A stretch of DNA of 52,473 nucleotides from a virus (IMGVR_UViG_3300037245_002311:1-52473), one strand, 5' to 3'; shown: positions 1-20,724, counted from the stretch's first letter. Made by a program: numbers and translations. Notes: a model not told the origin generated them from the letters alone.

Positions 1-47
1 CTGCCCGGCTCGGCAGGTTAGATCGCTGAATCGTTACCTGATACGGC

Positions 48-79
48 GCCCCCAGGCTGGGGGCTTGTTTCGGTTTTCT
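48..79 (+). terminator. Putative intrinsic terminator upstream of the first sigma28-like promoter
   Basis: GCCCCCA-GGC-TGGGGGC hairpin followed by TTGTTTCGGTTTTCT. Confidence 0.45.
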
Positions 80-122
80 CACCATACCAGGGCCGCGACC
101 TGCCTGCCTGCGAAAAAAGTGC

Positions 123-150
123 TCAAGTGCCGAGACCGGTCTGCCGTTAA
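123..150 (+). promoter_or_regulatory. sigma28-like promoter P1
   Basis: TCAA-N16-GCCGTTAA with upstream A-tract; leadered, gene starts at 188. Confidence 0.75.
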
Positions 151-187
151 GGCTGGAAATCGCGCAGAGCGCGCCAGGGGGCACGGC

Positions 188-520
188 ATGGCAGTGATCA
201 GAACCTTCGAAATCGACTACGAGCCCGACACCGCCGAGAACGCTGAGCAGTTTCAGGTCGAAGCGATCGTCGAGATTCACGACCAGGCCGAGACGGTCGA
301 GGTCGTGATCGGCCAGGTCGATATTTGGGTGCAGCCGATCAGGCCGAACGTCTCGCCCTGGGTCGAGATCATGCACCCGCTGCCCGAGTGGCTCGAGACC
401 GAGCTGCGCGACCAGGTGCTCGACATTCTTCGAAGCGACGGCGCCGAATATGACGCGACCCTCGCCGCCCAGGAAGTGCTCGACGAGCTGCGCGCTCGCG
501 AAGCGCAGGCAGGCCTCTGA
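188..520 (+). CDS. Hypothetical protein (acidic)
   Basis: ATG at 188 after GGGG; part of ORF 65..520; stop overlaps next start. Confidence 0.75.
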   Translation: MAVIRTFEIDYEPDTAENAEQFQVEAIVEIHDQAETVEVVIGQVDIWVQPIRPNVSPWVEIMHPLPEWLETELRDQVLDILRSDGAEYDATLAAQEVLDELRAREAQAGL

Positions 521-741
521 TGCCGGTCGAGACTCCTGAAGACCTGATGCACGAGGCCGTCGTGCGACTCGCCGAGAGCCTCGACCCTGCCCAGCAGGTG
601 CAGGTGCAACTCATGAAGGCGGCCGGCCGACTGCCGACCTGGTCGCCCAGGCTCACGAAGCTCGGGCTCGTCGCCGAGAATGGCCTGCTGACTGAGCTGG
701 GGCTCGAGGTCGCGACTCACCTGCTCGAGGGCGAACTGTGA
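520..741 (+). CDS. Hypothetical protein
   Basis: TGATG coupling to upstream gene. Confidence 0.7.
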   Translation: MPVETPEDLMHEAVVRLAESLDPAQQVQVQLMKAAGRLPTWSPRLTKLGLVAENGLLTELGLEVATHLLEGEL

Positions 742-968
742 AGAAAACACTCACGATTCTCGCACTGATCACCCTGCTCGCCGGCTGCGCGAGCTGGAAT
801 AACCCAGAACGAAGGGGGCACCGAAATGACGTCAGGCACTCAGCCGCCGAGCGACTCGAAGCAGAGAAGCTCTGGCTCTCGCACTGCAGAATCCACGAAA
901 ATGATGCCCGATGTCGATCGGGTGATTCGCAATCTCGCAGGCACCGCGACCAGGCCGACCGACGCTGA
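738..968 (+). CDS. Small putative lipoprotein
   Basis: MKK + hydrophobic stretch + lipobox LAGC. Confidence 0.6.
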   Translation: MKKTLTILALITLLAGCASWNNPERRGHRNDVRHSAAERLEAEKLWLSHCRIHENDARCRSGDSQSRRHRDQADRR

Positions 969-1389
969 CGAAGCCGAGGTCGAGGTGATCTTCGAGCGCC
1001 GCGACGGCTGGCGGCTCGGTGCACCTCTGCACTTCGAGCGCACGGCATTCGAGACATGGGCTGATCGCTGGGTCGCCTACTGGCTGAGGGTCAGAGCGGG
1101 CCGATACCGCGGCTGGGAGCGCGTGCCGATCAGCCAGCATCGCTTTCTCGCCGTCGACTGCGAGATCGCAGCCGAAGAGCAGATTCGAAATCTGGTCGGG
1201 CGCTGGGGCCAGCAGGGCGCTGCGGGCTACCGGAAGGCGCTGCTGCTCGCCGGCGTGATCGACGAGCTGCTCGGCCGAGAGGTGCACGGCACGCTCTTCG
1301 CCTCGAGCCCTCCGGGCTGCAGCTACAAGCTGGCCCGGCGCTTCGTGCGCGAGACTCTGAACCCGACCGACGACGAGGTGACATCGTGA
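826..1389 (+). CDS. Hypothetical protein
   Basis: GGGGG RBS before ATG 826; alternative start 901/904. Confidence 0.65.
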   Translation: MTSGTQPPSDSKQRSSGSRTAESTKMMPDVDRVIRNLAGTATRPTDADEAEVEVIFERRDGWRLGAPLHFERTAFETWADRWVAYWLRVRAGRYRGWERVPISQHRFLAVDCEIAAEEQIRNLVGRWGQQGAAGYRKALLLAGVIDELLGREVHGTLFASSPPGCSYKLARRFVRETLNPTDDEVTS

Positions 1390-1841
1390 GCGAGCAGACT
1401 GAAAGAGACGAAGGGCGCGAGCTTCGCCGCAGAAAGGTGATCGCGATGCTGATCAGGGCCGGCGGCCGCTCGATCTGGGATGGTGACGACAGGGTCGGCT
1501 GGGAAGACGGCGAGCCCAGGCAGACGATGCGAGGCTATGCGGTCGGCAGTCAGCTACTCGTCATGATCGAGAGCGAGGGCGGCATCGACGTGCTGCGCTC
1601 GATTAACCCGAAGAATTCGCTCGACGACCTGGGCGAGACGATCGCCCGAATCGGTAGGGGTGAGCCCGAGCCCTACCTGATCACGCAAGCGCTGCGCGAC
1701 AGCCTGATCGAGGCCGGCCGCCAGGCGATCGCGAAGCTCTGGTCGCACGAAGACCCAGAGCCGAGCCCCGAGCACCTGGCCCTGATCTCGGCGATCGACG
1801 AGCTGAGCCTGCTGCCTGCGGCCGCCACGAATAGGGGGTGA
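1386..1841 (+). CDS. Hypothetical protein
   Basis: GTGA overlap coupling. Confidence 0.7.
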   Translation: MSEQTERDEGRELRRRKVIAMLIRAGGRSIWDGDDRVGWEDGEPRQTMRGYAVGSQLLVMIESEGGIDVLRSINPKNSLDDLGETIARIGRGEPEPYLITQALRDSLIEAGRQAIAKLWSHEDPEPSPEHLALISAIDELSLLPAAATNRG

Positions 1842-1843
1842 GC

Positions 1844-2500
1844 ATGACCGAGACGCAAGCCGAAGAGAAAGACGAGGTCGCCTTTTTCGATCTCGAGACT
1901 GGGGGCTTCAAGAAATCCCAGCCGACGATTCAGGTCGCCGCGATCGTCGTCGACATCGCCCGCGACGGCTGGCCCGAGATCGAGCGCATCGAGGCGAAGG
2001 TGCAATTCGACCCCGAGATCTGCGACCCGCGAGCGCTCGAGCTGAATCACTACGACCCCGAGGTCTGGGCTCGTGAGGCCGTGCCAGCCGCCCAGGTGCG
2101 CCAGGATCTCGAGGCCTTCTTCAAGCGGCACCAGACGCTCGACCTGATCGGAAAGTCGAAGGGGGGCAAGCCTGGCAGGCCCTACAAGCTGGCGAAGGTC
2201 GGGGGGCACAACGTGAAGAGCTTCGACCTGCCTCGGCTCATACGCCTCTGGGGTGACGCTTTCCCGCCCTTCTGCCATTGGCGGTCGCTCGACACCCTTC
2301 AGCTGGCGGCCTGGGTGTTCGGATCAGGCCAGCACCCGCGGCGGCCGCTCGATCACAAGCTGCCGACGCTCTGCGCATTCTTCGACATCGAGCACGGGCA
2401 GGCCCATGAGGCGCTCGCCGATGTCGCGGCGACGATTCAGCTGGCCCAGAAGCTGCTCGAGCTGCAGCGCACCCTGGGGCTCGGGCAGAGGCCAGAATGA
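1844..2500 (+). CDS. DEDDh 3'-5' exonuclease (DnaQ-like)
   Basis: FFDLETGG, GHNVKSFD, SLDT, HEALADV motifs. Confidence 0.9.
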   Translation: MTETQAEEKDEVAFFDLETGGFKKSQPTIQVAAIVVDIARDGWPEIERIEAKVQFDPEICDPRALELNHYDPEVWAREAVPAAQVRQDLEAFFKRHQTLDLIGKSKGGKPGRPYKLAKVGGHNVKSFDLPRLIRLWGDAFPPFCHWRSLDTLQLAAWVFGSGQHPRRPLDHKLPTLCAFFDIEHGQAHEALADVAATIQLAQKLLELQRTLGLGQRPE

Positions 2501-2534
2501 GCTGAGAAAAAGGCGCTCACCGCGGGAAAAACTC

Positions 2535-2561
2535 TCAAGTTTCAGGGGTTTCGACCGTTAA
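2535..2561 (+). promoter_or_regulatory. sigma28-like promoter P2
   Basis: TCAA-N15-ACCGTTAA; ATG 7 nt later (2569). Confidence 0.75.
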
Positions 2562-2568
2562 GCAGTGC

Positions 2569-3528
2569 ATGACCGCCGCAAAAAACGCCGCCGAAAACGA
2601 CCTTCGAGACTTCGACTGGGTCGTCGTCAGCAGCTCAGCAGGGAAGGATTCGCAGGCGATGCTCGATCTGATCGTCGAAAAAGCCCGCCAGGCCGACGTG
2701 CTCGATCGCGTCGTCGTCGTGCACGCCGACCTGGGTCGCGTCGAATGGCAGGCGACCAGCCAGCCGATGCCCGAAGGCGTCGCCGAGATCTCAGTGCCTG
2801 ACCTGGCCGCCGAGCACGCTAAGGCCTACGGCCTGCGCTTCGAGATCGTGACACGACCGCAGGGCGACCTGCTCGAGCAGATCGAAGAGCGGGGCATGTT
2901 CCCCGGCATGGGCATGACTCAGTATTGCACCAGCGACCACAAGACCGCGCAGATCAAAAAGCTCTTCACCCGGCTCGTGCGCGAGACGAACGAAGCCGAC
3001 CCGAGCACGAAGAGCCGCCGAGTGCGAATTCTCGACTGCGTCGGGCTGCGAGCAAAAGAGTCTGACAAGCGGAGCGACCACCTTCTCGGCGGGCACTGGA
3101 AGGCCGACGAGTGGATCGTGAAGGGCGAGGCGCTGCCGATCGACGCGAACGGCTTCGCCTTCGAGCTAAACAAGAGAGCCAGCAACCCGACGAAGCGCGA
3201 AGTCATCAGCTGTTACCCGATCGCCGACTGGTCAGAGGCTGAGGTCTGGGCCCGAATCGACCAGGCCGTCACGCGATCGCACTGGGCCTATCAGGCCGGA
3301 ATGCCTCGCCTTTCTTGCTGCTTCTGCATCTATGCCTCGAAGCACGCGCTCATGATCGCCGGCCGCCATAACCCCGACCTGCTCGTCGAGTACGTGAGGG
3401 TAGAAAAGGCGATCGGGCACAATTTCCACGGCGAACCCGGAAAGAGCGGCAGCTTCTCGATCGCCTCGATCGCCGAGGCCCTCGAGACGGGCACCGAAAT
3501 CGAAGACGAAGGCTGGGGGAATTCATGA
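2569..3528 (+). CDS. PAPS-reductase-family (PP-loop) protein
   Basis: SSSAGKDSQA PP-loop, HADLGRVEW, YCTSDHK, GLRAKES, YPIADWS, RLSCCFCI. Confidence 0.85.
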   Translation: MTAAKNAAENDLRDFDWVVVSSSAGKDSQAMLDLIVEKARQADVLDRVVVVHADLGRVEWQATSQPMPEGVAEISVPDLAAEHAKAYGLRFEIVTRPQGDLLEQIEERGMFPGMGMTQYCTSDHKTAQIKKLFTRLVRETNEADPSTKSRRVRILDCVGLRAKESDKRSDHLLGGHWKADEWIVKGEALPIDANGFAFELNKRASNPTKREVISCYPIADWSEAEVWARIDQAVTRSHWAYQAGMPRLSCCFCIYASKHALMIAGRHNPDLLVEYVRVEKAIGHNFHGEPGKSGSFSIASIAEALETGTEIEDEGWGNS

Positions 3529-3908
3529 AGAAATGCCCGCAAGGCTGGGAAGACTGCGGCCGATGTCACCGGCCGAAATTCAAAAGCAACGCGCACGGGC
3601 CCGACCAGGCGATCAGGCCTCTGCTGCCTGGCGCGCACGGCGAGGCGATCGAGGTGCGCGAAGAATGGCACCGGAAACGCGAAGAGATTCTCGAAAACTT
3701 CGACCGGCGCCCCGACCTGGTGCGCGCTCTGGGCGCTGGCAGCCGCGAAGCCGTGCTCGCCGACACCCTGCGCGAGCTGCGCAACGTCGAAGCCGATCTG
3801 CGGCGCTGGGTCGAGCAGGTGCCCGTCGGCTGGCGCCTCGAGATGGAAATGCGCCTCGGCACCGTCGAGCTGGCGAATCGGGCCGTCGAGCGTGAGGGGC
3901 TCGAATGA
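3525..3908 (+). CDS. Hypothetical protein
   Basis: ATGA coupling, GGGG RBS, N-terminal Cys cluster. Confidence 0.65.
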   Translation: MKKCPQGWEDCGRCHRPKFKSNAHGPDQAIRPLLPGAHGEAIEVREEWHRKREEILENFDRRPDLVRALGAGSREAVLADTLRELRNVEADLRRWVEQVPVGWRLEMEMRLGTVELANRAVEREGLE

Positions 3909-4150
3909 AGCGCCCGCAGGCCCTTGAGTCAGAGAGCGACATCGAGGAGCGAGAAGAAAACGCGCGACTGACGGCCGACGCGCTGCTCGACGAATGGCAG
4001 GCTGCAGCGCGTGCGCTCGAGAGAATCAGCGGGCACCTCGCCGGCCTCCATGCGATGCGAGAGCTTCGGCGCTTCGAGCGGCAATTCGAAGCGGCCACTA
4101 AGAAGCTAGAGGCCTTGGCCGCTCGGATCATTCGAGACGGCAAGCGCTGA
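3905..4150 (+). CDS. Hypothetical coiled-coil protein
   Basis: ATGA coupling. Confidence 0.65.
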   Translation: MKRPQALESESDIEEREENARLTADALLDEWQAAARALERISGHLAGLHAMRELRRFERQFEAATKKLEALAARIIRDGKR

Positions 4151-4202
4151 ACGCGGCCGCCAGGCCTGAGGTTATGACGGGCCCAAGAAAAGGGGGGAAA
4201 CC

Positions 4203-4448
4203 ATGCACGACGAACTGAATCGCGAGACTCTGAAGCTGCTCGAGAAGCAGCACCGCCGGCGCGCGCTGGGCCTTCGAGGCTGCCTGGTGCGGGTGGTGGT
4301 GCTCGATGGGCCTAACGTGGTGAGATCATTCTTCGGCGAGCTGCAGAGCTTCGAGCCTGACGCCGACGAGATTCACCTGATGGGCGGGCACCCTGAGCTG
4401 ATCTCTTTCGACCGTGTCGTCGACATCAGACTCGCAGAGCCCTCATGA
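4203..4448 (+). CDS. Hypothetical protein
   Basis: GGGGGG RBS before ATG. Confidence 0.7.
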   Translation: MHDELNRETLKLLEKQHRRRALGLRGCLVRVVVLDGPNVVRSFFGELQSFEPDADEIHLMGGHPELISFDRVVDIRLAEPS

Positions 4449-4639
4449 CCTTTCGCTGCTCGATCTGCCGCCAGGTCTATCTCGACCAGGGCGGCCAGGC
4501 TGGCGAGGCGATCGGCGTCTGCGAGGCCTGCGGCCGCCGGCTGCTCGGCGACGCCGGCTTCGAGGCTGCTCGAGATCGAGCCCTCGACAAAGTGCACCGC
4601 CTGCGCACTCGCCTGAATCTGAAGCGAAAAAAGGCCTAA
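4445..4639 (+). CDS. Small Zn-finger-like protein
   Basis: CSIC...CEAC; stop codon TAA lies inside promoter P3. Confidence 0.65.
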   Translation: MTFRCSICRQVYLDQGGQAGEAIGVCEACGRRLLGDAGFEAARDRALDKVHRLRTRLNLKRKKA

Positions 4640-4663
4640 AGATCTCGAGGGGCTCACCGATAA
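4637..4663 (+). promoter_or_regulatory. sigma28-like promoter P3
   Basis: TAAA-N15-ACCGATAA; ATG 7 nt later (4671). Confidence 0.8.
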
Positions 4664-4670
4664 GGTGAGC

Positions 4671-5987
4671 ATGACCGACGCAAACACTCTCGAGACCCAG
4701 ACCCGCCGCTTCGTCGTGCTCAGCTACGGCATGGGCGTCGATTCGACCGCGATTCTGCTGCGCTGGCTCAGCGACCCCAGCTCTCGAGACTTCGACCTGG
4801 CCGACCTGATCGTCGTCACCAGCCAGACCGGCAGCGAGTTTCGGGGCTCGATCAGCCTCTGCGAGCAGCACGTGCTGCCGCTGCTCAAGGCCGCCGGCGT
4901 GCGCTTCGTCGAGATCGCCCGCCACCAGCGCAGCCAGAAGGGCCAGAAGTTTACCGTGCTGCAGGACTCTCGCAGCCCTGAGCGCCTGCACCCTGCCGGC
5001 GCCTATACGCTGGCCCGCGAGATGATCGAAGCCGGCACCGTGCCGCAGAGCGGCGGCGGTCACCTCTGCTCGATCAAAAGCAAGGCCGTGCCGATCGAGG
5101 CCTGGCTGGCCGAGCAGCCCGAGCTTCTGGGCGAGCGCGTGCACGTCATGGGCTACGCGAAGGGCGAAGAGAGCCGCAGCGCGAAAGACGTCGCCGCTCG
5201 AGCCGCCGCCGGCACGCTCGTGATCGAGCCCTACCGCATCGCCTTCGGCTTCGCGGCCGACGAGATGCCCCGAAGCGAGAAGACCGAGCGCGTCAGGGCC
5301 GAGAAAGCTCAGGTCGTCGCCGAGTTTCCGCTGCAGACCTGGGGCTGGGATCGAGACGCCTGCCTGGCCTTCATCGCCGAGCAGACCGGCGCCGTCTGGC
5401 CGAAGAGCGCCTGCACCTTCTGCCCCTTCGCCTTCAGTCGGAAAGACCGGCACCTGGTGCTCGGCCGCTTCGACGCCGAGCCGGCTGAGGCCCTCGAGGG
5501 CCTGCTCATGGAGGCTGGCGCGCTGGCGCTGAATCCCAGGGCGAAGCTCTTCAAGACGACCGGCCTGCGCGAAGCGCTCGAGGCCGCCGGGCACACCGAG
5601 GCCCTGGCGCTCTTCGAAGACGCCCTCGACGCCGCACCCTGGGCGATCTACCGCACCCGCCGGCAATTCACCGAGCGCCGCGATCACGTCGCCGGCTGCA
5701 AAAAAAGCACCTGCAGCTGCCCGATCAGCACCGAGAAATTCGGCGTGAATCGCTCGGTCGAGATCGTCGCCCAGGGCTCGCGCGCCGCGATCCTCGAGCA
5801 CCTCGAGCTGCTGGCTGAAGACCAGGGCCTGAAGGTCGACCGCGACGGGCCGATCGCCAGGGCGACCGTGCAGGGCTTCACCGAGAAGAGCCTCGAGGCC
5901 CGCGAAGAGATCCTCGCCGCAGCACCTCAGCAGGCCGAGGCGAAGGCGCCCCGATTCGACGAGGCGGCCTGGGCGGCGATCGACTGA
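4671..5987 (+). CDS. PP-loop (PAPS reductase/adenine-nucleotide alpha hydrolase-like) protein
   Basis: VLSYGMGVDSTAIL, QTGSE, CSIKSK, FPLQTWGWDRDAC, KSACTFCPF. Confidence 0.8.
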   Translation: MTDANTLETQTRRFVVLSYGMGVDSTAILLRWLSDPSSRDFDLADLIVVTSQTGSEFRGSISLCEQHVLPLLKAAGVRFVEIARHQRSQKGQKFTVLQDSRSPERLHPAGAYTLAREMIEAGTVPQSGGGHLCSIKSKAVPIEAWLAEQPELLGERVHVMGYAKGEESRSAKDVAARAAAGTLVIEPYRIAFGFAADEMPRSEKTERVRAEKAQVVAEFPLQTWGWDRDACLAFIAEQTGAVWPKSACTFCPFAFSRKDRHLVLGRFDAEPAEALEGLLMEAGALALNPRAKLFKTTGLREALEAAGHTEALALFEDALDAAPWAIYRTRRQFTERRDHVAGCKKSTCSCPISTEKFGVNRSVEIVAQGSRAAILEHLELLAEDQGLKVDRDGPIARATVQGFTEKSLEAREEILAAAPQQAEAKAPRFDEAAWAAID

Positions 5988-6052
5988 GCTGGGGGCTCAG
6001 ATCCGGCACCTCGATCGAGGTCGAGAATCTGAAACCAGGCCGAGAAAAAGGC

Positions 6053-6080
6053 TCAAGTTTCGGGCACCTCTGGCCGTTAA
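6053..6080 (+). promoter_or_regulatory. sigma28-like promoter P4
   Basis: TCAA-N16-GCCGTTAA; ATG 7 nt later (6088). Confidence 0.75.
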
Positions 6081-6087
6081 GGTGTGC

Positions 6088-6966
6088 ATGACCGACGCAA
6101 AAACCCTCAGATTCTACCTGGCAGGCATTAACTCACGACCGCTCGCAGCCGTCGCGAAAGGGCACGACGTGCTGATCAGCTTCGCAGACGTGAAGAAGGG
6201 CCCGGCATTCTGGGCCTGGCTCGCACCGATGATCGACGCCGGTCACTTTCGCTCAGTGATCCTCGACTCGGGCGCCTTCACCGAGCTGAGCGCTCGCAAG
6301 CGGGGCAAGACCTTCACGATCGACCTAGTCGACTTCGCCGACTTTGCAGTCGAAAACGCTCACCGCTTCACCTGGGTCGCGAATCTCGACTCGATCGAAG
6401 GCGATGTCGATCTATCGAATCGGAATCTGGCCTACCTCGAGAGCCGCGGCCTGCCCGTCGCACCCGTCTATCACGAGGGCGAGAGCCTCGAGCAGCTCGA
6501 GCACTGCGCCGCCCAGGCCCGCCAGGGTCGAGGCGTGCTGGCGATCGGCTGCCAGCGACCGAAGGGCTCTCTGCGACCCCGAAAGGTCGTCGAGTTTCTG
6601 ACCTGGCTCGCCCCCCAGCTCGAGCGCCTGGCCGGCGATCTCGAAGTGCACGGCTTCGGCCTGACCCGCTACGCGAGCGCAGCCTGCCCGTGCGGCTCTG
6701 ACGGCTTCAGCTTCGCGAGCGTCGACTCGACGACCTGGATCGCCGAGGGGTGCGCACTGTATCGATCGGGCGCGATCGCCGACCGTCACGCCTCGTTTCG
6801 CGCGACCGTCGACAGCTATCACGGCGTCGCCTGGGTCGACCAGCTCGAGCCCGACGTCGGCTTTCACGGCGAGCCCTTCGACATCGCCCAGGCCCTCGAG
6901 GCTGGCGGCCAGGCCGCGACCGTCGCCCGCCGGCACCAGGCGCTCGACCAGGCCGTCGCCGCCTGA
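6088..6966 (+). CDS. tRNA-guanine-transglycosylase-fold (DpdA-like) protein
   Basis: ILDSGAFT, ANLD, APVYHEGE, LAIG, VHGFG, SVDSTTW motifs of phage TGT-like proteins. Confidence 0.75.
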   Translation: MTDAKTLRFYLAGINSRPLAAVAKGHDVLISFADVKKGPAFWAWLAPMIDAGHFRSVILDSGAFTELSARKRGKTFTIDLVDFADFAVENAHRFTWVANLDSIEGDVDLSNRNLAYLESRGLPVAPVYHEGESLEQLEHCAAQARQGRGVLAIGCQRPKGSLRPRKVVEFLTWLAPQLERLAGDLEVHGFGLTRYASAACPCGSDGFSFASVDSTTWIAEGCALYRSGAIADRHASFRATVDSYHGVAWVDQLEPDVGFHGEPFDIAQALEAGGQAATVARRHQALDQAVAA

Positions 6967-7017
6967 GCCCAGGCCCTCATTCGCGCAGGAAAAACGACAA
7001 GAGCGCGAAAAAAGGGC

Positions 7018-7045
7018 TCAAGCTCGAGGCCCGTTCTGCCGTTAA
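7018..7045 (+). promoter_or_regulatory. sigma28-like promoter P5 (no gene directly downstream)
   Basis: TCAA-N16-GCCGTTAA with upstream A-tract. Confidence 0.7.
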
Positions 7046-7080
7046 GAGAACTACGGCGCCCCTGCGCGATGACAAGCAAC

Positions 7081-7108
7081 TAAAGCGCAACTTCTGCGCG
7101 GCCGTTCA
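7081..7108 (+). promoter_or_regulatory. Degenerate sigma28-like element
   Basis: CTAAAG with TAAA-N16-GCCGTTCA. Confidence 0.35.
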
Positions 7109-7164
7109 GCTTTCCGCTGGTTATGGAATCGGTAATAAATCGACCGCCGAATGTGAAAAACCGC

Positions 7165-7192
7165 TCAAGCTCAGGCCCTGCCCTGCCGTTAA
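7165..7192 (+). promoter_or_regulatory. sigma28-like promoter P6
   Basis: TCAA-N16-GCCGTTAA; ATG 7 nt later (7200). Confidence 0.75.
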
Positions 7193-7199
7193 GGGGTGC

Positions 7200-7388
7200 A
7201 TGACCGCAGAGAAAAAAGGGCAGAGAATGACCTGCAAAGTCGCGATTCGATACGTCTGCACCGCCTGCCGCTACCGCTGGGTGCGAGACGTGAACGCCAG
7301 CAGCCCTCAGATCATGACCCGACCGATTGGAACGCCCGACTGCCCGGCCTGCCGGCCGGCGCCTCGAGGCGAGTGCCGCACGCGCTGA
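7200..7388 (+). CDS. Small Zn-ribbon protein
   Basis: CTAC...CPAC; second in-frame ATG at 7227. Confidence 0.65.
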   Translation: MTAEKKGQRMTCKVAIRYVCTACRYRWVRDVNASSPQIMTRPIGTPDCPACRPAPRGECRTR

Positions 7389-7397
7389 AAAAAGGGC

Positions 7398-7424
7398 TCA
7401 AGCTCGCTGCCGTGCTGCCGATAA
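7398..7424 (+). promoter_or_regulatory. sigma28-like promoter P7
   Basis: TCAA-N15-GCCGATAA; ATG 7 nt later (7432). Confidence 0.8.
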
Positions 7425-7431
7425 GGTGAGC

Positions 7432-7827
7432 ATGACCGCGACGCAAACTGGGGGCACTGAGATGAGCATCAGACTGAACGAGCTGCTGACGAAGCCGGCG
7501 ATCGACTGGGCGCACTATGAGACCCAGGCCGCCGAGATGACCGACGAAGAGCTGATCGCCGCTCGCGTCGTCGCCTTCGAGACGTCGCGCGACCCGATGG
7601 TCACCGGCACCGATCTCGAGGGCTGCTGGCGCGACGCCGGCAGCGTCTTCGCCGGCGAGACCCGATTTCGAGAAGCGAAGGCCGCGACGATCGCGAAGAC
7701 CGCCGCCAGTCTGCGCCTCGACTCGAAAGACTTGGCCGACCGGATTCACGAAGCCGCCGCCGCCGATCCCAGCTCGATCTGGGCCGGCATCGCTGACCTG
7801 CTCGACACCGTCGAGGCAACGTCGTGA
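7432..7827 (+). CDS. Hypothetical protein
   Basis: Leaderless ATG 7432; second in-frame ATG 7462 after GGGGG. Confidence 0.7.
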   Translation: MTATQTGGTEMSIRLNELLTKPAIDWAHYETQAAEMTDEELIAARVVAFETSRDPMVTGTDLEGCWRDAGSVFAGETRFREAKAATIAKTAASLRLDSKDLADRIHEAAAADPSSIWAGIADLLDTVEATS

Positions 7828-8507
7828 GCGCGCCCTACCTCGACGACGGGCCGAAGGTCGACTGCCCCGAAGGTCGCCAGGTGCTCGAGGGCCTGGTCGT
7901 TTCCGAGAAGACCCGCGACGACGGCTTCGGGCCCGAGGGCCGCCAGGTGCTGACCGTGAAGGTCGAGACGCCCGAGGGCGCCTTCGTGATCTGGGGCACG
8001 TCGCCGAAGGCACTGCGCGAAGCTCCTGGGCTGCGTGGCTCGACCGTGCGATTCACCGCGACGCTGACTCGCAGCGACCGCGACGCGAGCTTCGGCTTCT
8101 TCAGCCGGCCGGCGAAGGCTGAAGTGCTCGAGCAGGGCGACGCCCAGAAGCCCGAGCTGATCGGCGCCTCGGGCTCGACCTTTCGGCTGCTCGAGCAGAT
8201 CATGCACGGCAAGAAAAACGCCGACCTGACGGTGAAGAGCGTCGGCCGAGTGCTCGCCCAGGCAGGCCTCGAGCGGCAGCGCTTCGAAGAGAATTTCGAC
8301 CATGACCGCGAGAATCACGCCCAGGAAATCTTCGACGGCGAGGGCGGCCGGCTCTTTCTGCGAATCTGGCCGAACGGCTGCGCGGGCGCCTGGTATGGCC
8401 CGCACCGAGACGAGCTGCGAGCCCAGGCTGAAGAGCGCGAAGCAGTGCTCGAGCGCGAGAAGGCCGAGCTGCTCGCCGATGTCGAGCGCTTCAGGGCTGG
8501 GCGCTGA
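7824..8507 (+). CDS. Hypothetical protein (beta-rich N-terminal domain)
   Basis: GTGA coupling; 227 aa ORF. Confidence 0.7.
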   Translation: MSAPYLDDGPKVDCPEGRQVLEGLVVSEKTRDDGFGPEGRQVLTVKVETPEGAFVIWGTSPKALREAPGLRGSTVRFTATLTRSDRDASFGFFSRPAKAEVLEQGDAQKPELIGASGSTFRLLEQIMHGKKNADLTVKSVGRVLAQAGLERQRFEENFDHDRENHAQEIFDGEGGRLFLRIWPNGCAGAWYGPHRDELRAQAEEREAVLEREKAELLADVERFRAGR

Positions 8508-8509
8508 TC

Positions 8510-8821
8510 ATGCGGCGAGAGCGCCTCAGCGGGCCGCAGATCAGCGCGCTCGAGTGCTGCGGGCTCGAGCACCCAGACGACGACGCCGAGCGCCTGCTCG
8601 CTCGATGCTGGGCTGCTGGTGATCGCCGAGCCCTCGTCTTCGACCCAGGCGAGGCCGAGGCACTCTGGGCTGCTCTGCGCGATCTCTCGAATGCTGAAGA
8701 CGATTTCGCCGAAGACCGCAGCCAGGATCGTGAAATGCGGCGACTCGCAGGTCGAGCTGCTCGCAGCCTGGGGGCGATCGGCAGCCGAGTGCTGATCTGC
8801 TGCAAGACCGGCCGATCGTGA
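8510..8821 (+). CDS. Hypothetical protein
   Basis: Starts 2 nt after upstream stop. Confidence 0.65.
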   Translation: MRRERLSGPQISALECCGLEHPDDDAERLLARCWAAGDRRALVFDPGEAEALWAALRDLSNAEDDFAEDRSQDREMRRLAGRAARSLGAIGSRVLICCKTGRS

Positions 8822-9213
8822 GCGCGCTCGAGGCGATCGCCCTGAGCTTCGAGCAGCTGCGCCAGGCTGCCGCTCAGATCGTGATCGCTGACCTGCCGAT
8901 GATCGAGATCTGCGATCGTGAGATCTGGGCACGCCTGCCCTGCGAGTGCTCGGCCGTCTATTTCGTGACGCACCCGATCGACGGCGTGCTCTACATCGGG
9001 AAAACCGCCGCGATCCGGCAGCGCTGGGCCTCGACGTATCGGCTGGGCCGGCAGATCTATACTCTGAACCATTCGAAGCACGCCCAGGCTCTCGACCTGG
9101 GCGACTGCGAGCTTTCCTGGCTCGAGATCGATCGCTGCTACCTGGCCGCGCTCGAGGCCGCGCTGATCGGGCTGCACCTGCCTCCCTGGAATCTGCGCGA
9201 GAAATACACCTGA
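8818..9213 (+). CDS. GIY-YIG nuclease family protein
   Basis: SAVYF...LYIGKT...RQRW...LE motif order. Confidence 0.75.
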   Translation: MSALEAIALSFEQLRQAAAQIVIADLPMIEICDREIWARLPCECSAVYFVTHPIDGVLYIGKTAAIRQRWASTYRLGRQIYTLNHSKHAQALDLGDCELSWLEIDRCYLAALEAALIGLHLPPWNLREKYT

Positions 9214-9226
9214 CCCGAAAAAAGGC

Positions 9227-9253
9227 TAAAGCCCTGGGCTGGTCTGCCGATAA
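9227..9253 (+). promoter_or_regulatory. sigma28-like promoter P8 (perfect consensus)
   Basis: TAAA-N15-GCCGATAA; ATG 7 nt later (9261). Confidence 0.85.
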
Positions 9254-9260
9254 GTAGTGC

Positions 9261-9479
9261 ATGACCGACACAAACCTCGACAGCTTCGTGACACGAACCA
9301 ACGAGCACTTTCTCGTGCCCGAGTATCGGGCGCAGCGAGGCGCTGGCTGGACGCTGCACACCGACAAGGCGCAGCGATTCACCTTCGGCGACGCGATCGT
9401 CGAGCACCGGCTGCACGAGCGCAGCACGGTCGTCGAGGCCTTCGCCGACGCGATCGAGCAGCTGGCAGCAGCCAGCTGA
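9261..9479 (+). CDS. Hypothetical protein
   Basis: Single-gene unit between P8 and P9. Confidence 0.7.
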   Translation: MTDTNLDSFVTRTNEHFLVPEYRAQRGAGWTLHTDKAQRFTFGDAIVEHRLHERSTVVEAFADAIEQLAAAS

Positions 9480-9487
9480 AAAAAGGC

Positions 9488-9514
9488 TCAAGTCCAGCCA
9501 GGTCTCGCCGATAA
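9488..9514 (+). promoter_or_regulatory. sigma28-like promoter P9
   Basis: TCAA-N15-GCCGATAA; ATG 7 nt later (9522). Confidence 0.8.
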
Positions 9515-9521
9515 GTAGTGC

Positions 9522-9746
9522 ATGACCGCGACGCAAAAAGGGGACACCATGACCGCCGAGATCGCCGAAGCCAAAGCTGATCACCTCGACACGATCGAGA
9601 CCTGCGAGGCCTACCTCGCCGACTACCAGGCGCACGTCGAGGCCGGCGGCAGCAACGCCGGCGCGCTCTTCAATATCACCGCCGCCGATTTCGCGAAGGC
9701 CCAGATCGCCTTCGAGCGCGACGCGATCGCGAAGCTCGAGGTCTAA
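9522..9746 (+). CDS. Hypothetical protein
   Basis: Second in-frame ATG 9549 after GGGGA. Confidence 0.7.
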   Translation: MTATQKGDTMTAEIAEAKADHLDTIETCEAYLADYQAHVEAGGSNAGALFNITAADFAKAQIAFERDAIAKLEV

Positions 9747-9756
9747 AGGGGCAGCC

Positions 9757-9987
9757 ATGAAAAAACACGTTCCGCAGAATCACGGGCTAATGCAGCGAAT
9801 CATCTCGGCCGAAAGGGTGAGCGAGCCGAGGCTCGAGCAGATCGTCGCGCTCGAATGCGGCCACGACTTCCGAGGCAACTGGACGACGTTATTTCCCCTC
9901 GGTGAGCTTTCGAGGTGTCGCGAATGCTTGTCGCCGAACGCTGACCCGACGAGCAGCCACTTCACTGGGGAAAAAGGCTCAAGTTAG
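9757..9987 (+). CDS. Hypothetical protein with Cys/His cluster
   Basis: GGGG RBS; LECGH...CREC. Confidence 0.65.
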   Translation: MKKHVPQNHGLMQRIISAERVSEPRLEQIVALECGHDFRGNWTTLFPLGELSRCRECLSPNADPTSSHFTGEKGSS

Positions 9988-10006
9988 AAGCTCGATCGAC
10001 CGTTAA
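9979..10006 (+). promoter_or_regulatory. sigma28-like promoter P10
   Basis: TCAA-N16-ACCGTTAA; ATG 7 nt later (10014). Confidence 0.75.
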
Positions 10007-10013
10007 GGTGAGC

Positions 10014-10343
10014 ATGACCGCGACAAAAACCGCAAACCGAAAAGGGGCAGCCATGCAGCGACCTAATGACCCGATCACCCGCCTCGCCGACGTGGCGATG
10101 CACCTTTTCGCCGATCTCGCGGCCGCAGCTGGCCCCGAGGCGCCCTTCGCCCAGGCGCGCGAGCAGCTGGGCGATCGCTTCTTCACGGCCGCGACCGACG
10201 GCCTGCGCGCAGGGCTGAAGGCTCTGCTCACCGACGACCAGGTCGTCGCTGATCTCGATGCGGTCGGCCAGGCTGCGGCCGCTGAGCGTCTGCTCGGCGT
10301 CGCCCAGGCTGGGATCGACGCAGTGATCGAGGCCGCGGCATGA
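10014..10343 (+). CDS. Hypothetical protein
   Basis: Second in-frame ATG 10053 after GGGG. Confidence 0.7.
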   Translation: MTATKTANRKGAAMQRPNDPITRLADVAMHLFADLAAAAGPEAPFAQAREQLGDRFFTAATDGLRAGLKALLTDDQVVADLDAVGQAAAAERLLGVAQAGIDAVIEAAA

Positions 10344-10492
10344 CGATCGAAGAGCTGCGGCAGAGACTTCACGAGATCTGGCTCGAGCACGGCGACGTCG
10401 AGGTGCTGATCGACGACCGAGGCGTCGAGCCGAAGCTCGAGATCGACATCGTCGACGAAGAGACCGGCCGGCTCGCAGTTTGGATCGGCTGA
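10340..10492 (+). CDS. Small hypothetical protein (50 aa, not in ORF track)
   Basis: ATGA coupling; MTIEELRQRLHEIWLEHGDVEV. Confidence 0.65.
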   Translation: MTIEELRQRLHEIWLEHGDVEVLIDDRGVEPKLEIDIVDEETGRLAVWIG

Positions 10493-10518
10493 GCTTCGTC
10501 GCTTGAAAGGGGGAAATC

Positions 10519-10809
10519 ATGCACGAAAAAACCGAGGCAGCGACCAGGGGCGCGATTCAGCGCGCGATCGACACTCGAGCGTGGAATCTCACCGGCCAGC
10601 CAGTGCGCCTGGTCGTCGACCGGCTTCGCGGCGGCCAAGGCCCCGAGCTTCACTTCGGCACGATCACCCTCGTGACGGGCTCAGTCGTCGAGCTGGCAAG
10701 CGACGGCACGGGCAGCTGCCTGCTCAGCACCTTCGAGATCGTCAGGGTCGACGCCGCGACCGCCGAAGATCTCGAAAAGGCTAAAGCCCGGCGGCCGGCT
10801 GCCCGATAA
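10519..10809 (+). CDS. Hypothetical protein
   Basis: GGGGG RBS; stop TAA is part of the P11 -10 element. Confidence 0.7.
   Translation: MHEKTEAATRGAIQRAIDTRAWNLTGQPVRLVVDRLRGGQGPELHFGTITLVTGSVVELASDGTGSCLLSTFEIVRVDAATAEDLEKAKARRPAAR
10782..10809 (+). promoter_or_regulatory. sigma28-like promoter P11
   Basis: TAAA-N16-CCCGATAA; ATG 7 nt later (10817). Confidence 0.7.
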
Positions 10810-10816
10810 GGTGAGC

Positions 10817-10951
10817 ATGACCGACACCGACCGACCCGCGAATGACCGGCTCGAGCTTCCTGCCGACGTGGCAGCCCTCGAGGCGGCGATCGCAGATCTC
10901 GACCCTGAAGAGCAGGCGCTGGTCGCCGCGATTCAGGCCGCCCAGGGCTAA
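10817..10951 (+). CDS. Small acidic protein (44 aa, not in ORF track)
   Basis: MTDTDRPANDRLELPADVAALEAAIADLDPEEQALVAAIQAAQG, directly after P11. Confidence 0.6.
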   Translation: MTDTDRPANDRLELPADVAALEAAIADLDPEEQALVAAIQAAQG

Positions 10952-10990
10952 CAGGCGGGCCCGACTCCCAGGGCCTACTCGCCAGAGGGC

Positions 10991-11020
10991 CGCCCCCTTC
11001 GACCGTTCACGAAGGGGGCG
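10991..11020. terminator. 11-bp GC hairpin (terminator or RNA-stabilising element)
   Basis: CGCCCCCTTCG-ACCGTTCA-CGAAGGGGGCG, intergenic; no clear U-tract. Confidence 0.4.
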
Positions 11021-11078
11021 CGCTCGCTCTGCCGATCATTCTGCCGATTGAATTCGCCCCGAATCTGCCCTTTTTCGC

Positions 11079-11105
11079 TCAAGTTTGGCCGAGGCTCGCC
11101 GATAA
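11079..11105 (+). promoter_or_regulatory. sigma28-like promoter P12
   Basis: TCAAGTTT, TCAA-N15-GCCGATAA; ATG 7 nt later (11113). Confidence 0.8.
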
Positions 11106-11112
11106 GGTGAGC

Positions 11113-11310
11113 ATGACCGACGCACACCGACTCGAGACCGAAACCGGAAACCCGCTCATGCCGACGACCGCAGTCGTCGACTGCCCCGAGTGCCCGCAGG
11201 CGGGCCCTGGGCACACTCAGCTCGAGCTGCTCGCAGACGGCGGCGCGACCTGCCCGAACTGCAGCCGCTGGTGGGCCGACGCGAAAGCGCTGGTCGAGGC
11301 CGCACGATGA
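11113..11310 (+). CDS. Small Zn-ribbon protein
   Basis: CPEC...CPNC. Confidence 0.7.
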   Translation: MTDAHRLETETGNPLMPTTAVVDCPECPQAGPGHTQLELLADGGATCPNCSRWWADAKALVEAAR

Positions 11311-12242
11311 GGGCCGTCGATCTCTTCGCCGGCGCTGGCGGATTCACCCAGGGCGCGAGCCAGGCCGGCGTCGACGTCGTCTGGGCCGCGAATCACTGGC
11401 AGATCGCAGTCGATGCGCACTCGGCGAATCACCCGAGCGCGATTCACGTCTGCCAGGATCTGCAGCAGGCCGACTTCACGCAACTGCCCGAGCATGAGCT
11501 GCTGCTCGCGAGCCCGGCGTGCCAGGGGCACTCGAAAGCTCGAGGCGTCGACCGACCGCAGCACGACGTCACCAGGGCGACCGCCTGGGCAGTGATCGCA
11601 GCCGTCGAGGCCGCGATGCCTCAGGCCCTGATCGTCGAGAACGTGCCCGAATTCGCCGACTGGCAACTCTTTCCGATCTGGCGCCAGGCCCTCGAGGCCT
11701 ACGGTTACCAGGTCAGCACCCAGGTGCTCGACGCTGCCGACGCCGGCACGCCCCAGCATCGAGAGCGGCTCTTCGTCGTCGGCTCTCGCCAGGGCGCGAT
11801 CGACATCGAGGCCCCTCAGGCCGAGCACGTGCCCGCCTCGAGCTTCATCGACTTCGAGTCTGGCAGCTGGTCTGCGATCGATAAGCCGGGCCGCGCTCAG
11901 AAGACCCTCGACCGCATCGCCCGCGGCCGGCTCGAATTCGGCACGACGCCCTTTCTCGCGCCCTATTACGGCAGCGGCTCAGGGAAGACTGGCCGCAGCC
12001 TCGACCGCCCGATCGGCACGATCACGACCCGCGACCGCTGGTCACTGATCAAGGGCGACCGCATGAGAATGCTCACCGTCGCCGAGTATGCCGCCGCTAT
12101 GGGCTTCCCTCGGGGCTACGTGCTCGAGACCAGCCGAAAAAAGGCGATTCACCTGCTCGGCAACGCCGTGCCGCCGCAGCTGGCCGCGCACGTGATCAGC
12201 CAGGTCGCCGGCCAGATCGAGCAGGCCGAGCAGGCGGCATGA
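11307..12242 (+). CDS. DNA (cytosine-5) methyltransferase
   Basis: DLFAGAGG (motif I), SPACQGHS (IV), ENV (VI), QHRERLF (VIII), GNAVPP (X). Confidence 0.92.
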   Translation: MRAVDLFAGAGGFTQGASQAGVDVVWAANHWQIAVDAHSANHPSAIHVCQDLQQADFTQLPEHELLLASPACQGHSKARGVDRPQHDVTRATAWAVIAAVEAAMPQALIVENVPEFADWQLFPIWRQALEAYGYQVSTQVLDAADAGTPQHRERLFVVGSRQGAIDIEAPQAEHVPASSFIDFESGSWSAIDKPGRAQKTLDRIARGRLEFGTTPFLAPYYGSGSGKTGRSLDRPIGTITTRDRWSLIKGDRMRMLTVAEYAAAMGFPRGYVLETSRKKAIHLLGNAVPPQLAAHVISQVAGQIEQAEQAA

Positions 12243-12270
12243 GTTTTTTCGATCGGCCGTCACTTTTCGC

Positions 12271-12298
12271 TCAAGGCTGGGCACTAACAGGCCGATAA
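12271..12298 (+). promoter_or_regulatory. sigma28-like promoter P13
   Basis: TCAA-N16-GCCGATAA; ATG 7 nt later (12306) opens a 9-codon uORF. Confidence 0.75.
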
Positions 12299-12336
12299 GT
12301 AGTGCATGACAGCGAGACAAACGGCAGGGGGATGAA

Positions 12337-12435
12337 ATGACGACTCGAGCTTTCTTCGGTTTTATGGTTTTCTTCACGACCTTCGTGGCTGGCATGGTCT
12401 GCCTGCTGAGTGCCGCGACCGGCGGGTGCCTGTAG
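12337..12435 (+). CDS. Small membrane peptide (32 aa)
   Basis: MTTRAFFGFMVFFTTFVAGMVCLLSAATGGCL after GGGGG RBS. Confidence 0.55.
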   Translation: MTTRAFFGFMVFFTTFVAGMVCLLSAATGGCL

Positions 12436-20520: not shown

Positions 20521-20689
20521 TAGGGGTTTATGTAATAATGCAATAATAGTGATAGGTGCCGACCTTCCGATAAAACGCACCGAAGAGCCCGAAAAGGCTA
20601 AAGAATCCCGTTTGTCCGATCCGACAAAACTCTCGAGACCCGACAAAACGACCGCCGAGAATCGGCACCAGGTGCCGACTTTTGTCGGC
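20521..20689. other. Putative replication origin (AT-rich tract plus CCGACAAAA iteron-like repeats)
   Basis: TTTATGTAATAATGCAATAATAGTGATA; CCGA(C/T)AAAA at 20567, 20621, 20640 and inverted at 20680. Confidence 0.45.
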
Positions 20690-20692
20690 TTC

Positions 20693-20708: not shown

Positions 20709-20724
20709 CTGAGCGGGGCGCCTG

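Follow-up and report, generated by a model that had tools for sequence, protein, structure and literature searches.

Which sigma factor reads a series of near-identical promoter-like elements at the start of a phage contig, and which genes do the elements drive? The question was investigated in a stretch of 52,473 nt, referred to here as the window, for which the original prediction proposed 13 same-strand copies of a two-box element acting as sigma28 (FliA/WhiG) promoters.

The repeated two-box element

The phage contig carries 13 elements of the form A-tract, CTMAAG, N15/16, CCGWTAAG on the + strand, spanning 114 to 12,300 (Table 1). The octamer CCGWTAAG was found 16 times in the window against an expectation of 1.11, and 0 of 100 dinucleotide shuffles reached 16. 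Thirteen of these sites are on the + strand (144 to 12,299), each with an upstream CTMAAG at a distance of 15 nt (six copies) or 16 nt (seven copies); the remaining three (31086+, 39327+ and 48692-) had no -35 partner. A two-block weight matrix, of the kind the original prediction had proposed for scanning the full genome, set the 13 copies apart at 26-40 bits, and 20 mononucleotide-shuffled versions of the window yielded 0-1 hits of >=14 bits. Shuffles, strand bias and matrix together bear out the predicted number of copies. In the rest of the window, the matrix returned just two weak hits (15-17 bits, at 20590 and 20624); no complete copy was found outside 114-12,300 in the 52.5-kb contig, structural region included, in agreement with the original prediction. 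Its placement of the copies at gene boundaries was likewise correct, as 13/13 lie at or across upstream ORF ends. Its -35 coordinates are each one base higher than the CTMAAG starts in Table 1 because they refer to the T in T(C/A)AAG.

The -35 element is CTMAAG in 13/13 copies (10 TCAAG and three TAAAG). Within the -10 element, (G)CCGWTAAG, CCG and TAA are invariant (13/13), the preceding base is G in 9/13, and the base at -11 is A in 7/13 and T in 6/13 (C in one copy of the relative L003). An A-tract stands before the -35 box in 11/13 copies and a T-tract in those at 11078 and 12270; the A-rich tract, at about -43 to -38, is presumably UP-element-like. In two relatives, L002 and L003, the boxes were retained at orthologous places and the spacers had diverged, with identity between the window and L003 of 24/24 in the -10 box, 17/18 in the -35 box and 30/48 in the spacer. 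Invariant boxes joined by a spacer bound in length and free in sequence are the signature of a sigma-dependent promoter, and this anatomy supports the assignment of the elements as candidate promoters of a bacterial multi-subunit RNA polymerase.

Modules that differ between the window and L003 begin with a copy. Missing from L003 are the PAPS-reductase module, the 4.6-10.8 kb block and the whole of the methylase module behind copy 12, which is bounded by the two T-tract copies. These differences favor the idea that the repeats are not mainly promoters and serve as recombination or cassette junctions, or as translation signals on a long polycistronic transcript, an idea we consider highly improbable. 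Such roles are compatible with promoter function and need not replace it.

Table 1. Array copies and flanking hairpins, in window coordinates.
Feature	Coordinates	Strand	CTMAAG start	Description
Terminator-like hairpin	48..67	+		G+C hairpin with T-rich tail just 5' of copy 1; upstream boundary of block
Copy 1	114..151	+	122	A-tract, CTCAAG, N16, CCGTTAAG; no leaderless block; GGGGG Shine-Dalgarno-like run, then ATG 188 (110-aa ORF)
Copy 2	2526..2571	+	2534	N15, CCGTTAAG; ATG 2569, 319-aa PAPS-reductase-like ORF
Copy 3	4628..4673	+	4636	CTAAAG, N15, CCGATAAG; ATG 4671, 438-aa ORF with PAPS-reductase-like N-terminal part
Copy 4	6044..6090	+	6052	N16, CCGTTAAG; ATG 6088, 292-aa DpdA/queuine tRNA-ribosyltransferase-like ORF
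Copy 5	7009..7046	+	7017	N16, CCGTTAAG; no leaderless block; no ORF ahead of copy 6
Copy 6	7156..7202	+	7164	N16, CCGTTAAG; ATG 7200 (62-aa ORF); second in-frame ATG behind SD-like run
Copy 7	7389..7434	+	7397	N15, CCGATAAG; ATG 7432 (131-aa ORF); second in-frame ATG, +10 codons, behind GGGGG
Copy 8	9218..9263	+	9226	CTAAAG, N15, GCCGATAAG; exact TAAA-N15-GCCGATAA; ATG 9261 (72-aa ORF)
Copy 9	9479..9524	+	9487	N15, CCGATAAG; ATG 9522 (74-aa ORF)
Copy 10	9970..10016	+	9978	N16, CCGTTAAG; ATG 10014 (109-aa ORF)
Copy 11	10773..10819	+	10781	CTAAAG, N16, CCGATAAG; ATG 10817 (44-aa ORF); L003 ortholog at 10664
Copy 12	11070..11115	+	11078	T-tract, N15, CCGATAAG; ATG 11113 (65-aa ORF), then C5 cytosine methylase
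Copy 13	12262..12308	+	12270	T-tract, N16, CCGATAAG; ATG 12306, 9 codons only, then SD-like GGGGG and new ATG; L003 ortholog at 11194
Two overlapping terminator-like hairpins	20662..20689	+		T-rich tails; first + strand ones past array

Comparison with sigma28 promoters

Among known promoters, sigma28 (FliA/WhiG) is supported as the best class match in both boxes and spacing, with TAAAG or TCAAG at -35 and GCCGATAA at -10. In the available text of PMC12784957, the P. aeruginosa fliC promoter reads (-36)TCTAAAG(-30) and (-15)GCCGATAA(-8). The phage elements read GCTMAAG, 14-15 nt, (G)CCGWTAA, and the copies with 15-nt spacers have the fliC spacing, with the predicted start 8 positions past the last A of the -10 box. 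The sigma28 spacing is kept exactly in six copies and is one base longer in seven; copy 8, given as 9227 in the original prediction, is the perfect match it was said to be. The original sigma28 reading thus holds for the boxes and spacing, and use of the elements by sigma28 is predicted only. On sequence comparison, the sole mismatch to the class is the A or T at -11. The available text of PMC12784957 describes -11A as the single non-template base read (flipped) by sigma28, in contrast to the T found there in 6/13 phage copies. The same text gives -7 as not conserved among sigma28 promoters, whereas G occupies -7 in 13/13 phage copies vs. 0/20 host T-variant sites.

These host sites were 20 TMAAG-N15/16-CCGTTAA matches from one bacterial family, a non-random set hand-picked by co-location or -35 extension. 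The genes behind them encoded MotA (5), STAS-domain proteins (7), proteins of no family (4) and one each of FliD, a Cache/HAMP protein, a response regulator and a GGDEF protein. The -11 base was swapped between genomes: the STAS gene had A and motA had T in four genomes, with the reverse in two, and the orthologous proteins compared were 62-71% and 81-83% identical. The motA start lay 8-9 nt past the -10 box in 7/7 genomes looked at, and that of a Pseudoxanthomonas CheW-domain gene 7 nt past it. Within the single bacterial family tested, A/T variation at -11 is natural at these apparent sigma28-type promoters. Over 151 genomes, the T-variant pattern showed no enrichment (matched in 48/151), and a hand tally gave about 84 matches for it vs. 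about 147 for a reversed-pattern control.

The phage copies resemble the host promoters in the A/T alternation at -11 and in start codons close to the box (7-9 nt past it at motA, the STAS gene and cheW-like genes). Unlike them, the phage copies form an array of 13 in 12 kb, vary far less than the host promoters compared, have an A-tract upstream, an invariant -7 G and a conserved block reaching about +17, and precede DNA-modification and nuclease genes instead of motility genes.

The likeness to sigma28 would be coincidental if a phage factor steered the host primary-sigma holoenzyme to the elements; it could be an activator bound at the A-tract/CTMAAG box or a sigma-appropriation pair of the T4 middle type. 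TAAG could then begin a -10 hexamer, with the G two bases upstream and the free W recalling an extended -10, and small immediate-early proteins are encoded upstream in L003. However, the hexamer TAAGNN ends in T in just 6/13 copies, the start would fall 2-3 nt inside the ATG, and CTMAAG stands 19-20 nt from the hexamer, not 17. It is also unlikely that both boxes, the spacing and the natural variants would match sigma28 by chance, and we regard such redirection as improbable.

A start codon at the predicted transcription start

An ATG lies exactly 7 nt past CCGWTAA (6 nt past the octamer) in 11/13 copies. When the P. aeruginosa fliC numbering in the available text of PMC12784957 is applied, the A of this ATG falls at +1, and leaderless mRNAs are therefore predicted; the 11 copies would give transcripts starting 5'-AUGACC. 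The fixed ATG and the block downstream of it are a feature that the original prediction overlooked. Conservation beyond the -10 box runs from -6 to about +17, and the part following the ATG is conserved in two reading frames (ATGACCGACGCAAA vs. ATGACCGCGACGCAAA), which argues for a nucleotide-level and not a peptide-level signal. In three ORFs, homology begins near the ATG (residues 2-54 in the 2569 ORF, 13 in the 4665 frame and 5 in the 6082 frame), and a later start therefore has no room. A second in-frame ATG, led by a Shine-Dalgarno sequence, lies 9-13 codons downstream in four copies.

The conservation in two frames would also suit a translation signal made of an SD-like AAGG, the ATG and the CA/A-rich downstream region, and TAAGG does place AAGG 5 nt ahead of the ATG in 8/11 ATG copies. 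Copies 1 and 5, however, keep both boxes and have no ATG block, which speaks against this reading. Leaderless mRNAs are known for lambda cI from PRM and for many actinobacterial, Deinococcus and Caulobacter genes. The array is like these in a predicted transcript that begins at the A of the AUG and in the CA/A-rich stretch after the start codon, but differs in repeating the design at 11 same-class promoters in one phage and in the four copies with a Shine-Dalgarno-led second ATG.

The block probably fed by the array and its candidate sigma factors

The overlapping hairpins at the far end of Table 1 are likely the downstream end of the block fed by the array. Since no terminator-like hairpin was found on the + strand between 48-67 and 20,662-20,689, the array probably feeds an early/middle block of ~20.6 kb, which the same-direction copies, free of terminators up to 20.69 kb, would drive additively. 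Block genes include DpdA-like, PAPS-reductase-like, C5-methylase, exonuclease and GIY-YIG genes; the copies do precede DNA-modification genes, as originally claimed, and nuclease genes as well. Between 1 and 20 kb, sigma70-consensus promoters were not in excess (1 found vs. 0.9 expected). The description of the region as early was not upheld. In L003, the first copy is preceded by a sigma70-like promoter and three small genes as well as a terminator-like hairpin; given this sigma70-like promoter, the array is probably not immediate-early, and the arrangement is suggestive of delayed-early or middle expression.

From the element anatomy and +1 geometry, which come from the sequence and published numbering, we infer promoter use, start site and sigma identity. 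The elements would be 13 sigma28-class promoters, read most likely by the host's own sigma28 (probability roughly 0.47). Reading by host sigma28 would restrict the block to, or boost it in, cells with active flagellar sigma. Active sigma28 signals a flagellated cell that has exported its FlgM. Placing essential early functions under a FlgM-restrained sigma would nevertheless be risky.

A phage-encoded sigma28-like (group 3) factor, perhaps a captured host fliA, is a rather unlikely but substantial alternative, under which the array would be a classic phage middle-promoter regulon merely resembling the host flagellar class. Its gene could be in genome sequence that the contig lacks, as the contig is an estimated 61% complete, and L003 has at least 3.6 kb of unmatched sequence beyond the window start, with a leftward operon running off the contig. 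The 13 near-invariant copies, conserved past the known sigma28 contacts (-7 G; -6 to about +17), show an invariance typical of phage-specific promoters, and the sigma70-like promoter, small early genes and hairpin ahead of copy 1 in this lineage form a layout characteristic of cascades that depend on a phage product. FliA/sigmaF-like sigmas also occur in phages: tblastn with Pseudoxanthomonas FliA matched annotated sigma factors at 25-29% identity in Xanthomonas phage Xoo-sp15, Microcystis phage MaAM05 (gene named fliA) and Bacillus phages Gamma, Fah and WBeta. On the other side, the search for a sigma factor proposed by the original prediction found none in the available sequence. Six-frame translation of the 52.5-kb window yielded no match to Sigma70_r2, r4 or r4_2, and 18 unannotated proteins matched no sigma-like family at E values up to 5; among them were the three small + strand ORFs (2755-3600) from the additional 3.6 kb of L003. 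The motif also mirrors the host A/T and TCAAG/TAAAG variation, for which a private sigma would have no obvious need.

Phage-encoded sigmas such as SPO1 gp28, T4 gp55 and phiEco32 gp36 read middle or late promoter regulons. The array is like these in its many near-identical non-sigma70 promoters, in forming one temporal block and in lying downstream of a host-type early promoter, and is unlike them in that its motif is a host alternative-sigma consensus and not a private one, with no sigma gene in the available contig sequence. Morons and the T4-type mobile promoter cassettes (PeSL elements) carry sigma70 early promoters with stem-loops. Like the array, they join promoter and gene in modules that one close relative may have and another lack, and the repeated promoter could provide homology for module exchange; the array promoter, by contrast, is sigma28-type, fused to a predicted leaderless start and without a terminator. 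Going by titles and abstracts, we found no phage with such an array in the literature, consistent with the original prediction, which was aware of no described phage with such a regulon.

We tentatively propose that reading by host sigma28 wires ~20 kb of early/middle genes, including DNA modification, to the flagellar sigma through 13 UP-element-boosted promoters, 11 of them with leaderless starts; the phage would read the motility state and bypass both sigma70 and Shine-Dalgarno initiation, and the repeats would double as cassette-swap junctions. If confirmed, phage gene expression could be tied to motile host cells, and phage development would sense host motility state through sigma28 activity. 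That the copies titrate sigma28 off flagellin genes is speculation. On the host side, the capsid protein had no match in 401 genomes of the single bacterial family tested, and the structural proteins were 38-47% identical to phages of Proteobacteria and of Actinobacteria alike.

Among 116 loci examined, three unrelated phage-like contigs of 46-63% G+C held two full two-box copies each, with about 0.4 expected by chance by our own estimate. The recurrence of the pattern at such different G+C speaks against a private phage sigma, and the pairs hint at a wider use of sigma28 by mobile elements.

The two-box element and its probable promoter class

The octamer CCGWTAAG (W at the −11 position) occurs 16 times in the window against 1.11 expected, and 13 of these occurrences lie on the plus strand between 144 and 12,299. 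CTMAAG precedes all 13, at a distance of 15 nt in six copies and 16 nt in seven, and is itself directly preceded by an A-tract in 11 copies and by a T-tract in the last two. Both the description and the coordinates of these elements in the original prediction were correct, its positions marking the T of T(C/A)AAG. With a two-block weight matrix the 13 copies scored 26–40 bits; 20 shuffles each returned zero to one match at ≥14 bits. The same scan of the remaining window gave no further complete copy and two weak matches near 20.6 kb. L003, a relative viral contig collinear with the window at 80–90% identity, shares three orthologous copies, in which 24/24 positions of the −10 box, 17/18 of the −35 box and 30/48 of the spacer were identical, the sole −35 change falling at the known A/C position. 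Sigma-dependent promoters are characterized by invariant boxes around a spacer whose length is fixed and whose sequence is free, and it is very improbable that these repeats serve primarily as something else.

The A-tract lies at about −43 to −38, the location of the proximal UP-element subsite, as expected for a multi-subunit polymerase that has alpha subunits. The fliC promoter of P. aeruginosa consists of (−36)TCTAAAG(−30) and (−15)GCCGATAA(−8) (PMC12784957). The phage arrangement of GCTMAAG, 14–15 nt and (G)CCGWTAA matches both fliC boxes, and the copies with a 15-nt spacer have exactly the fliC spacing. The proposed resemblance to the sigma28 class was thereby upheld, together with its perfect-consensus copy (9227 in the original numbering), which reads TAAA-N15-GCCGATAA at 9226. 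Sigma70-consensus promoters did not exceed chance within 1–20 kb (one found vs. 0.9 expected), and a redirected sigma70 as the factor reading the array is quite improbable. Judged by eye, none of the consensus sequences of sigma32, sigmaE/ECF (including the EcfG and PvdS types), sigma54, the alphaproteobacterial primary sigma and CtrA boxes agrees with the two boxes and the two −11 variants together.

The probable transcribed block and its predicted leaderless starts

The IMG/VR viral contig that makes up the whole window has 52,473 bp and a G+C content of 64%. It is categorized as linear with an estimated completeness of 61%, and nearly all of its genes are on the plus strand (Table). No tRNA or Rfam family was found in it. 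Within 1–21 kb, terminator-like hairpins on the plus strand were confined to the two tabulated locations. With 13 co-directional promoters and no hairpin between, the array probably feeds one block of ~20.6 kb, within which transcript levels would probably build up in the downstream direction. Besides many small genes without known function, the block carries two PAPS-reductase-like genes, a DpdA-like gene and a C5 methylase, a gene content suggestive of a DNA-modification (anti-restriction) kit with several layers, 7-deazaguanine modification possibly among them.

Table. Coordinates of features in the window and of two-box sites on three other viral contigs
Feature	Position	Strand	Remark
Terminator-like hairpin	48–67	plus	upstream of copy 1
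Early/middle region, small genes	114 to about 20,700
PAPS-reductase-like gene, first	2569–3528		behind own promoter copy
PAPS-reductase-like gene, second	4671–5987		behind own promoter copy
DpdA/queuine-tRNA-ribosyltransferase-like gene	6088–6966		behind own promoter copy
C5 cytosine methylase	11190–12242		behind own promoter copy
DnaQ-like exonuclease			in ~20.6-kb block
GIY-YIG nuclease			in ~20.6-kb block
Two overlapping terminator-like hairpins	20,662–20,689	plus
Terminase, portal, capsid, tail, lysis genes	21.4–48 kb
A few genes, one for a CI-type helix-turn-helix protein	right end	minus
L088 sites	9892, 7405	minus
L126 sites	3859, 3437	minus
L089 site	7312	plus
L089 sites	6261, 4304	minus

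A feature that the original prediction had overlooked is an ATG exactly 6 nt past the octamer in 11 of the 13 copies, inside a conserved GYGCATGACCG..ACGCAAA. ORFs of 44–438 codons with MT(A/D) as their first residues start at ten of these ATGs, and for three of them (2569, 4671 and 6088) family homology begins almost at the ATG, so that a later start is not possible. The block after the ATG occurs in two registers, ATGACCGACGCAAA and ATGACCGCGACGCAAA, so its conservation is at the nucleotide and not the peptide level. Numbered as in fliC, the box has its last A at −8, and the next 7 nt are −7 to −1. Consequently, the A of the ATG falls at +1, and 11 promoters are predicted to give leaderless mRNAs. 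Copies 1 and 5 are without the conserved block: copy 1 has an ordinary Shine-Dalgarno-led start at 188, and copy 5 has no ORF ahead of copy 6 and no unusual degree of structure in the 112 nt after it (z = 0.03).

Four of the genes (7200, 7432, 9522 and 10014) have a second in-frame ATG 9–13 codons on, with a G-rich run resembling a Shine-Dalgarno sequence ahead of it. The first frame at 12306, in contrast, ends after nine codons, just before a start of this kind. Genes with two ATGs could produce two N-terminal isoforms or be translated from either a leaderless or a leadered transcript. In eight of the 11 ATG-bearing copies, the invariant G after TAA creates an AAGG 5 nt upstream of the ATG. 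We infer that ribosomes could bind read-through transcripts at this AAGG, each promoter's own transcript being leaderless; such dual use would explain the conservation from −7 to about +17 beyond the needs of sigma28.

Further non-coding features lie within the window. Tandem 48-bp units occupy a gap between early genes at 19058–19257 (4.1 copies, 78% matches; consensus starting AAAGTTTTCAGGATCAC), with degenerate copies from 18854, and could be replication-origin iterons or a partition or packaging site. A non-coding island at 20523–20725, following a stop at 20522, contains an AT-rich stretch, the overlapping hairpins, three CCGACAAAAC-like repeats and, at 20590, a single half site resembling a −35 box, GAAAAGGCTAAAG, that lacks a proper −10 partner; it is probably a boundary and control region between early/middle and late genes. 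The minus-strand genes include one for an 80-aa CI-type protein at 51922–52164 (Phage_CI_repr, HTH_3); the window showed no integrase.

The −11 position and the sigma factor

The −11 position is A in seven phage copies and T in six, and C in one L003 copy. According to PMC12784957, the single non-template base read by sigma28 is a flipped −11A, which is the main objection to a sigma28 reading. A scan of bacterial genomes with the composite motif gave two matches, about the number estimated for chance, one of them at a real flagellar/chemotaxis locus of Pseudoxanthomonas, ahead of a CheW-domain gene that flgA, flgM and flgN adjoin by ORF reading. The flgM-like ORF of Pseudoxanthomonas has TAAAGTCC-N11-GCCGATAA upstream. 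Among 151 genomes of the Pseudoxanthomonas family, the A-variant pattern was present in 74 and the T-variant in 48; by hand tally, T-variant matches were not enriched across these genomes (about 84 vs. about 147 for a reversed-pattern control). Ten T-variant sites were on the same contig as A-variant sites, 1.8–3.7 kb apart. Among 20 T-variant sites hand-picked for co-location or a TCAAGT extension, the downstream genes encoded STAS-domain proteins (7), MotA (5), FliD, a Cache/HAMP protein, a response regulator and a GGDEF protein (1 each), and four belonged to no family.

Four genomes combined CCGATAA at the STAS-gene promoter with CCGTTAA at motA, and two others had the reverse. The proteins behind these swapped promoters are orthologous (62–71% and 81–83% identity), so A and T alternate at −11 in this family. 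The start codon follows the box by 8–9 nt for motA in 7/7 genomes examined and by 7 nt for the CheW gene, and a near-leaderless layout is thus natural too; the motA mRNA of the family would be leaderless or nearly so. For predicted promoters of this kind, the −11A objection is removed for at least one bacterial family, and the phage host may lie outside it. The T at −11 in apparent sigma28-type promoters of the Pseudoxanthomonas-family genomes L010–L029 and L151–L156 conflicts with −11A as the sole base read and shows that such promoters of this family tolerate T there.

Our leading reading, held tentatively at a probability of roughly 0.47, is that the host's own sigma28 reads the promoters. 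The original prediction had also allowed for a phage-encoded sigma factor. Searches for a sigma gene found none: six frames of the 61%-complete contig contained no sigma domain, and lenient thresholds gave no sigma-like family among 18 unannotated proteins, three of them encoded in the additional 3.6 kb of L003 upstream of the window. The protein atlas returned nothing usable for the 110-aa L003 protein or a 187-aa window protein. The phage copies also vary between TCAAG and TAAAG, and between A and T, in the way that natural sites do. Moreover, at least three unrelated phage-like contigs (L088, L089 and L126), among 116 loci examined, carry two full copies each, against about 0.4 estimated for chance, and one copy on them has the same AAAAAGGGCTCAAG...GCCGATAAG architecture. 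Use of sigma28-type promoters by mobile elements may be wider. L088, L126 and L089 have G+C contents of 46%, 58% and 63%, and genes near their sites encode AAA_25 and GHKL ATPases, Macro and SprT domains, a C5 methylase and a GP88-family protein.

Several observations count against the host factor. The contig is incomplete, the 13 phage copies are more uniform than host sites, and G at −7 is found in 13/13 phage copies vs. 0/20 host T-variant sites. Upstream of copy 1, L003 has a sigma70-like promoter (TTGCTT-N18-TAAAAT, 9 nt ahead of a start at ATGACAGA), followed by three small genes and a terminator-like hairpin (window 48–64), an order that is a cascade layout. FliA/sigmaF-like sigmas occur in phages Xoo-sp15 (Xanthomonas) and MaAM05 (Microcystis) and in Bacillus phages Gamma, Fah and WBeta. 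A sigma28-like factor encoded by the phage itself is somewhat unlikely as the reader of the array.

Phages can use the host's primary sigma, their own polymerase or sigma, or a remodelled sigma70. If host sigma28 does read the array, a whole temporal gene class would be under an alternative host sigma that reports cell state (motility or differentiation), a new regulatory strategy that would bear on which cells a phage chooses to exploit, e.g., flagellated planktonic cells. Sigma28-type promoters, leaderless mRNAs, phage promoter arrays and promoter-bearing cassettes are all known individually; their combination was not found described in literature searches outside subscription journals. With one promoter class fused serially to predicted leaderless start codons, the array is a small natural model in which the choice of start sites and the translation of leaderless mRNAs could be studied. 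The array is of real interest within the limits of an uncultured, incomplete genome and predicted promoter use.

Relatives and promoter-bearing cassettes

Among viral contigs with the composite motif, the true relatives were L002 and L003 only; metagenome contigs gave three loci with one copy each, and L009 among these looks related. Searches for related loci with the portal, an L003 nuclease and an early window protein returned only the already-known relative. L003 is without the PAPS-reductase module (window 2,502–3,496), most of window 4.6–10.8 kb and the small-ORF-plus-methylase module (window 11,073–12,258), so promoter-plus-gene units come and go between relatives. The two T-tract copies flank the methylase module in the window, and L003 has one there. 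In this one comparison, the pattern fits repeated promoters providing homology for cassette exchange. A role of this kind has been suggested for morons and for the promoter cassettes of T4-type phages, which are alike in being promoter-plus-gene units gained or lost between relatives. The sequence that precedes the window start is seen in L003 at 2600–3600. It comprises a divergent control region containing the sigma70-like promoter, three small plus-strand genes (for proteins of 87 aa, with CxxC pairs, 110 aa and 78 aa) and a leftward operon for a PD-(D/E)XK nuclease and a DUF7352 protein.

Megablast of window 1–12,400 against cultured phages gave no match. No cultured phage reached 60% identity to the terminase, capsid, portal or endolysin, and the phages matched had both proteobacterial and actinobacterial hosts. 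The capsid protein was not found in 401 Pseudoxanthomonas-family genomes, the endolysin search gave 12 metagenome proteins with no host clue, and the lysis cassette did not discriminate between Gram-negative and Gram-positive hosts. Two capsid/portal relatives with complete genomes had no array: Pseudomonas phage KPP23 (50 kb scanned, one loose site) and Arthrobacter phage Laroye (42 kb scanned, two loose sites). KPP23 (L146, 1–50000) has a repeated 10-mer of its own, TTCGTTTTAC, in 10 copies on the gene strand; it is unrelated to the two-box motif and may be a phage-specific regulatory motif.
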